64,000 nt of DNA from a virus (Duplodnaviria > Caudoviricetes), in the IMG/VR virus record IMGVR_UViG_2841255697_000002, positions 1 to 64,000 of that record, one strand, 5' to 3'. Below are positions 39,956 to 40,155 of the stretch, piece after piece. Each line of letters begins with the position of its first letter. Position 1 is the first letter of the stretch. The notes under the pieces were generated by a model. That model saw only the letters and a program-made list of their open reading frames with translations, was not told where the DNA came from and searched no databases. The translations under genes and the position numbers were made by a program.

Positions 39956-40000
39956 GGCGATGATAGGTCTATTCATTCGGTTCGAGTCCGAACATCGCCG
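39956..40000 (+). ncRNA. tRNA minihelix-like RNA (acceptor stem and T arm only)
   Basis: GGCGATG/CATCGCC, TTCGG-TTCGAGT-CCGAA, 13-nt linker in place of D, anticodon and variable arms. Confidence 0.75.
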
Positions 40001-40001
40001 C

Positions 40002-40155
40002 AATCTGAGAACAAGCTGTTTAGTCAAGGAAAGAGCTTGGGAGATTCCACTGGTTTGTGCATTGTACCAAAACTTGACTAGGGAAACCGAAAGAAAAATG
40101 CACCTTTCTTTCAAACCTGTTCGGCGGTCAGGACAAAACCGCCAAAACTAAACAT
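40002..40155 (+). ncRNA. structured RNA or leader upstream of rtcB
   Basis: TAGTCAAG/CTTGACTA, GAAAGAAA/TTTCTTTC and GGCGGT/ACCGCC stems; complementary loop words GTGCATT and AATGCAC. Confidence 0.55.

Follow-up and report, generated by a model that had tools for sequence, protein, structure and literature searches.

A tRNA top half, made up of an acceptor stem and a T arm, was found to occupy the place of the 5' hairpin in a divergent drum RNA within a phage operon of tRNA genes, drum RNA, and rtcB, and this description can be given with high confidence. The element (39956-40003, hereafter the minihelix) lies in a window of 64,000 nt, which is the whole stretch of DNA analyzed and belongs to a 74-kb provirus record of IMG/VR. 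The original prediction had presented it as a stand-alone minihelix gene. This was not borne out, as a drum RNA (RF02958) follows the minihelix, which fills the place of the drum RNA's 5' hairpin. The minihelix was judged to have about an even chance (roughly 0.5) of being a tRNA-type processing site and a 5' structure for the drum RNA. It joins known kinds of element, namely tRNA-like processing signals and drum RNA, in a new combination that was seen once.

Structure and setting of the minihelix

Reading of the letters confirmed the predicted architecture, in which only 13 nt link a canonical T arm to a 7-bp acceptor stem free of mismatches (Table 1). The T arm consists of a 5-bp stem and a 7-nt loop (TTCGAGT), with G53/C61 and T54-T55-C56-R57-A58 all in place as in the tRNA consensus. 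All 12 pairs of the minihelix (7 + 5) are Watson-Crick, and the 3' strands of the two stems are contiguous. The 7-bp acceptor, 5-bp T stem, and 7-nt T loop are those of an acceptor-T-arm minihelix, to which a 13-nt bulge is added on the 5' side by the linker that replaces the D arm, the anticodon arm, and the variable region. The unit was also correctly predicted to abut tRNA-Ile: the tRNA-Ile called by ARAGORN ends at 39954 with its CCA included, and the minihelix starts 1 nt (T39955) after this CCA. The reported lack of a CCA in the minihelix itself was likewise found, as the discriminator G40000 is followed by CAA and GCAA is encoded in place of NCCA. The U at -1, the G1-C72 pair, and the missing CCA are putative signal features for RNase P and RNase Z.

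No tRNA was called on 39956-40003 by ARAGORN or by Rfam RF00005 at E <= 10, and the letters do not form a cloverleaf. ARAGORN and Rfam returned no match to tmRNA or RF02553 on the minihelix, and its pair 3:70 is C-G, not the G3-U70 of the tmRNA type. The folding energy was unremarkable (MFE of -15.6 kcal/mol, z = -1.86). The MFE structure contains the acceptor stem, and the T arm was tied with an alternative inner fold.

The rarity of this arrangement was assessed with a strict scan requiring a perfect T stem, a loop of TTCRANY, G53/C61, a 7-bp acceptor stem with at most one G-U pair, and a linker no longer than 32 nt. The minihelix was the single match in the window, and 300 block-shuffled windows together gave one match. 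Across 3.05 Mb of loci, three real matches were found, compared with a mean of 0.05 per shuffle over 20 shuffles. Such rarity in shuffled DNA indicates that the minihelix is derived from a tRNA or was given a tRNA shape by selection, rather than arising by chance.

On the + strand, the minihelix is preceded by a degenerate tRNA, a spacer RNA, and tRNA-Ile, and it is followed by the drum RNA, rtcB, tRNA-Gln, and tRNA-Trp. The 105 nt assigned to the drum RNA scored above the gathering cut-off of 43 bits (E of 2.7e-8, model positions 1-112), and the same match was obtained in the whole record. The match begins at 40002, leaving two bases after the end of the acceptor stem (39999) and one after the discriminator, and the minihelix itself is outside the RF02958 model.

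Table 1. Features of the RNA operon, with positions in the window.
Feature	Position	Strand	Basis
Degenerate tRNA-like element	39566..39635	+	Rfam tRNA 43.5 bits; no ARAGORN call
243-nt spacer, possible structured RNA	39636..39878	+	fold
tRNA-Ile (TAT), CCA encoded	39879..39954	+	ARAGORN; Rfam 63.0 bits
One T separating the minihelix from the tRNA-Ile CCA; position -1 at the proposed RNase P cut	39955	+	sequence
Minihelix, 5' acceptor strand, pairs 1-7	39956..39962	+	sequence, strict scan
Minihelix, 13-nt linker with GG	39963..39975	+	sequence; same in sister allele
Minihelix, T arm, 5-bp stem and 7-nt loop	39976..39992	+	sequence, scan; same in sister allele
Minihelix, 3' acceptor strand, pairs 66-72	39993..39999	+	sequence, scan
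Discriminator G and C, the 2-nt GC spacer before the drum RNA; no CCA	40000..40001	+	
Drum RNA RF02958, divergent member	40002..40106	+	Rfam 53.1 bits
rtcB, RNA 3'-phosphate/5'-OH ligase, 401 aa	40167..41372	+	Pfam PF01139, E 6.4e-63
tRNA-Gln (TTG), CCA encoded	41391..41466	+	ARAGORN, Rfam
tRNA-Trp (CCA anticodon), CCA encoded	41472..41547	+	ARAGORN, Rfam

A CCA is encoded in all three of the real tRNAs and is absent from the minihelix and the degenerate tRNA. Each of these two CCA-less elements stands directly 5' of a non-tRNA segment. In the degenerate tRNA, the acceptor, D, and T arms are perfect, the anticodon arm is about 5 nt short, and TCA follows instead of CCA. In run X6, the change A39612>G leaves a T-stem pair of this element as G-U.

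The spacer that follows the degenerate tRNA folds with a 14-bp closing stem (39694-39707 paired with 39848-39861; MFE of -57.9, z = -2.0). It had no Rfam match at E <= 10 and no phage match. A contig of the RNA library X8 spans 39574-39855, with the neighboring genes outside. The spacer is possibly a stable structured RNA outside the known families.

No promoter-like site was found on the + strand within 39432-40219, and no terminator was found on that strand. This drum RNA copy, lacking a promoter and a terminator of its own, must therefore be cut from a longer transcript. Among the 10 neighboring ORFs scanned, no integrase and no Ro/TROVE protein was identified, and no match to RF02553 (YrlA) was found within 38500-42500 at E <= 10. 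Upstream of the RNA operon, an LPD11 domain protein and an ArdA antirestriction protein are encoded (35562-37177), and a Rha/ANT antirepressor-type protein is encoded downstream (43851-44843). The surroundings, with ArdA, LPD11, and RtcB, are those of an early or anti-defense type of region.

The 5' hairpin of drum RNAs

The more solid by-product of the analysis was a covarying 5' hairpin of drum RNAs that lies outside the Rfam model. Drum pattern scans of IMG/VR returned at least 119 and at least 113 stretches, and 11 of the 20 loci sent to Rfam exceeded the drum cut-off among the matches listed. A further five copies were found in four of the 151 genomes from the class of Acetivibrio mesophilus (G001, the genome holding L348). 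In nearly all drum copies, a hairpin was present just upstream of the Rfam start, beyond the 112 positions of the model. Its canonical form, seen in 11 copies, has an outer stem of 5 bp, an inner stem of 3 bp, a bulged pyrimidine on the 3' side, and a loop of 5-6 nt, and it is followed by a 2-nt GY spacer. The minihelix locus has GC at this place.

Covariation among the 11 canonical hairpins was strong, with six of the eight pairs changed on both sides and a score that none of 500 shuffles reached. The underlying alignment retained only rows in which all eight pairs were formed (12 of 77 distinct matches, from which one mis-call was dropped) and, among the matches listed, skipped those with less than 140 nt upstream; this selection of rows produced the 100% pairing but not the compensatory changes. 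Of the 17 drum RNAs scored with Rfam (the minihelix locus, others from the matches listed, and bacterial copies), 14 had a hairpin of six or more pairs ending 0-3 nt ahead of the Rfam start, compared with 353 of 1,020 random 50-nt windows. Among the bacterial copies, the hairpin begins about 8 nt after the end of a 12/12 consensus promoter, and a terminator lies downstream of the core. A promoter just 5' of the hairpin together with a terminator after the core places the hairpin at the 5' end of the RNA.

The position of this hairpin explains the location of the minihelix. The canonical hairpin itself is absent at the minihelix locus, where only the position of the slot and the 2-nt spacer agree, and both the shape and the loop differ. 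The canonical layout with its own promoter and terminator is also absent, in contrast to the loci L436 and L437. As described in passages of PMC5737381, drum RNA copies are followed by a terminator. The canonical copies found here carry their own promoter, the covarying 5' hairpin, and a terminator, while at the minihelix locus tRNA-Ile and the minihelix take the place of the promoter and hairpin and rtcB takes the place of the terminator. The copy is nonetheless a drum RNA by its score (RF02958; PMC5737381), and its setting among tRNA genes is shared with many phage copies, which lie inside tRNA arrays and in some cases beside skipping-rope or ROOL RNAs. A parallel layout with a canonical hairpin was found at locus L261, in the order tRNA-Gly-CCA, 2 nt, hairpin, GC, and drum RNA.

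The 5' hairpin was observed at L074, L118, L125, L159, L181, L182, L211, L255, L261, L263, L266, and L435-L439. In drum-bearing phage tRNA arrays, a ROOL RNA was located at 2902-3497 of L161 and a skipping-rope RNA at 6259-6338 of L159, where 3 nt separate the drum RNA from the skipping-rope RNA downstream. A tRNA-Ile (TAT) adjoins the drum RNA in L125, L073, L159, and L161, as well as in the operon studied here. Several of the Ile-TAT calls near drum RNAs were 90-95 nt, an odd length for tRNA-Ile. A group of the L093 type matched the drum patterns but is not drum RNA, no Rfam match having been obtained in L093, and it was left out of the drum set.

Proposed processing and known parallels

The idea that the minihelix punctuates RNA processing remained the most plausible mechanism among those originally put forward, with the cleavage predicted from sequence. 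Most likely, the minihelix descends from a tRNA gene in which the D and anticodon arms were lost. Host RNase P would cut between T39955 and G39956, which would leave tRNA-Ile with its CCA and one base to be trimmed, and would provide the downstream RNA with a base-paired 5' end. A further cut, after G40000, may be made by RNase Z, since GCAA and not NCCA follows, and it would then release the drum RNA from C40001. The minihelix would in this way serve as a junction piece of the transcription unit, located where other drum RNAs have their 5' hairpin. CCA-less ends are substrates of RNase Z in Bacillota.

The cleavage proposed here has precedents in passages of PMC4919922, where bacterial RNase P is described to tolerate extensive tRNA truncation and to act on phage regulatory RNAs. 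[quoted passage not shown] These elements resemble the minihelix in that a tRNA-shaped piece within a longer transcript is cut by tRNA enzymes and sets the ends of its neighbors. However, they are eukaryotic or organellar, and mascRNA has a fuller cloverleaf, while the minihelix is a bare acceptor/T unit 5' of a phage small RNA, with cleavage predicted. The C4 antisense RNA of P1/P7 is similar as a phage regulatory RNA with an end made by RNase P (PMC4919922, same passages).

Two further comparisons concern known RNAs of similar shape or setting. Synthetic minihelices share the 12-bp coaxial acceptor/T helix and the T loop; they end in NCCA without a 13-nt bulge, whereas the phage minihelix has the bulge and GCAA. 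YrlA, a bacterial Y RNA encoded near rtcB, is likewise a non-coding RNA with a tRNA-like module. In contrast to YrlA, the minihelix locus had no RF02553 match and no Ro/TROVE protein. Small RNAs are also produced from the spacers of tRNA operons in E. coli, and stable RNAs are held in the tRNA cluster of T4. Apart from PMC5737381 (2017) and reviews, no literature was found on what drum RNAs do or on naturally occurring minihelices of phages.

The sister allele and competing readings

The minihelix was a singleton in every collection searched. An exact search of IMG/VR with the whole minihelix and two inner stretches returned no matches. When the minihelix and drum RNA were compared by BLAST with GenBank phages, two weak matches resulted, both in a portal gene, and BLAST against plasmids matched the tRNA-Ile part only. 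Relatives of the RtcB protein shared no more than 56% identity in IMG/VR (43 loci) and no more than 60% in metagenomes and in genomes (80 loci from each). Rfam found no drum RNA in the 40 RtcB loci of IMG/VR scanned out of the 43, and the drum 3' motif was not found in 160 RtcB loci. A pattern for the drum variant of the minihelix locus matched nine stretches, none of which was drum-like by eye. Another pattern, in which a canonical drum start comes immediately after a tRNA T arm, matched 41 stretches (21 distinct), none of them a drum RNA. No parent tRNA was identified among 275, the best candidate differing at nine of 32 compared positions. A relaxed-scan match in L244 was rejected as chance, being located in coding-like DNA with no tRNAs.

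The sole close relative was a 1,395-nt contig from run X2, which covers 39500-40205 (706 nt) with 16 differences (15 of them listed) and no gaps. The lack of gaps indicates that no full-length tRNA is present there. The original prediction had named such a tRNA in close relatives as the sign of a recent deletion; it was not found in X2, but two pair-breaking changes and a change of the discriminator were. Specifically, G39959>T breaks pair 4:69 and G39997>A breaks the adjacent pair 3:70 with no compensation, and G40000>A alters the discriminator. When these changes were applied to the minihelix, the acceptor stem was gone from the predicted fold. No alternative helix that would turn the changes into compensatory ones and that is kept in both alleles was found by hand. 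The contigs of runs X6 and X7 miss the minihelix, and those of X8 consist only of 39574-39855 and a foreign rtcB piece, so that their gap over tRNA-Ile, the minihelix, and the drum RNA is uninformative.

The minihelix changes amount to three in 15 nt (P = 0.004 against the mean rate of the contig). More broadly, 11 of the 15 listed changes were within the 151 nt of the minihelix and drum RNA (39956-40106; P about 2e-5), and tRNA-Ile was unchanged and most of the flanks were identical. The stretch 39956-40106 is a local divergence hot spot or a recombination tract. In the main drum stem, three of four changes preserve a pair or create one (G-C to G-U, U-A to U-G, and G-G to G-U) and one breaks the closing pair. 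Since the changes in the drum stem mostly keep pairing, the acceptor stem looks less constrained than the drum RNA. On the other hand, the 30 nt of the linker and T arm received none of 10 changes within this fast tract (about 10% divergence, P about 0.02). This thin evidence, from one allele only, points to constraint on the T arm and linker and to acceptor pairing that is not under strict constraint.

A lesser yet sizeable likelihood was given to the minihelix being a functionless relic, that is, a tRNA gene of the cluster that suffered an internal deletion and is decaying with no selected role, perhaps cut in passing. The X2 allele, with two pairs broken, the discriminator changed, and the stem lost from the fold, is what decay would produce, and the failure to find a second copy agrees with it, as do the other defective tRNA of the cluster (39566-39635) and the truncated tRNA-like elements of other phage tRNA clusters. 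However, a decaying remnant does not account for the drum 5'-hairpin slot being occupied with the usual 2-nt spacer and with no other hairpin there, and neutrality predicts that two of its three changes should hit the linker and T arm, which remain intact. The drum RNA is equally divergent in X2 and yet keeps its pairs, which argues that a high rate alone does not amount to decay. Additionally, the close relative has the same length, and no parent tRNA was found.

An improbable third reading takes the minihelix as an integral 5' domain of the drum RNA, in which the T loop and the linker GG, standing in for a D loop, form an attached knob resembling a tRNA elbow that replaces the hairpin. The slot and spacer are as for the canonical hairpin, the acceptor strands carry changes that leave the T arm and linker untouched, and promoter-bearing drum copies include the 5' hairpin in the RNA. 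Against these observations, none of the canonical features (5 + 3 bp, bulged pyrimidine, loop of 5-6 nt) is shared, the CCA-less 3' end would invite removal by RNase Z, and the putative elbow has a single sister allele behind it.

The CCA-adding enzyme and certain synthetases accept acceptor-T minihelices as substrates, and G3:U70 is the identity element for alanine. The original prediction had accordingly raised the idea of a released RNA of 45-48 nt with an added CCA, which would be aminoacylated or would act as a decoy for CCA-end toxins or sensors of uncharged tRNA such as Rel. The shape does fit such minimal substrates and the neighborhood is of the early or anti-defense type, but nothing positive was found in support, pair 3:70 is not G-U, the acceptor stem is not conserved in X2, and no other phage copy was found, making this role very unlikely. 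Next to no weight was given to a chance hairpin, for which the single match in 300 shuffles is too few, or to an att-type tRNA 3' fragment left by site-specific integration, since even though the record is classed as a provirus and partial tRNA genes from integrating elements are described as common in passages of PMC9897764, such a fragment would lack the 5' acceptor strand, and the minihelix lies inside an RNA operon rather than at an element end, with no integrase among the 10 neighboring ORFs.

If the minihelix is a working handle, as in the favored reading of a processing site and 5' structure, it shows phages plugging a drum RNA into a tRNA operon beside an RNA repair ligase, and it provides a testable feature for drum RNA, namely the way its 5' end is formed and the need for a hairpin at that end. 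Should it prove a relic only, it would add a further case to the decaying tRNA genes. A broader and rather doubtful proposal is that tRNA top halves are reusable cassette boundaries in phage RNA operons, where ends made by host RNase P and RNase Z would allow a foreign structured RNA, in this case a drum RNA, to be inserted into a tRNA array with no promoter.

Truncated tRNAs in two other viral clusters, L042 and L245, resemble the minihelix in that the acceptor stem and T arm are kept, the middle is lost, and intact tRNAs adjoin. The minihelix differs from them in having no full-length parent found and in abutting a structured RNA in the 5'-hairpin slot. In L042, an rtcB-bearing phage contig, positions 4915-5200 contain a tRNA-Ala-CCA, 5 nt, and a truncated tRNA-like element that has a 21-nt linker and no CCA, followed by about 230 nt of a strongly structured non-tRNA stretch (z = -3.35) with no Rfam match and then by tRNA-Met. 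This arrangement is an independent parallel that speaks for the processing reading of the minihelix. The principle of cassette boundaries, if true, may explain why this CCA-less unit precedes a structured RNA. Under the same principle, the anticodon-loop inserts of L245 would be excised by tRNA enzymes and the tRNA halves rejoined by a phage RNA ligase. The minus strand of L245 encodes two tRNA genes (about 2029-2179 and 39-189) with an insert of 60-70 nt in each anticodon loop. These inserts are compact tRNA-like units with an acceptor stem and a canonical T arm, one of which ends in CCA. When introns were allowed, ARAGORN called the second gene as tRNA-Gln(TTG) with a 61-nt intron.
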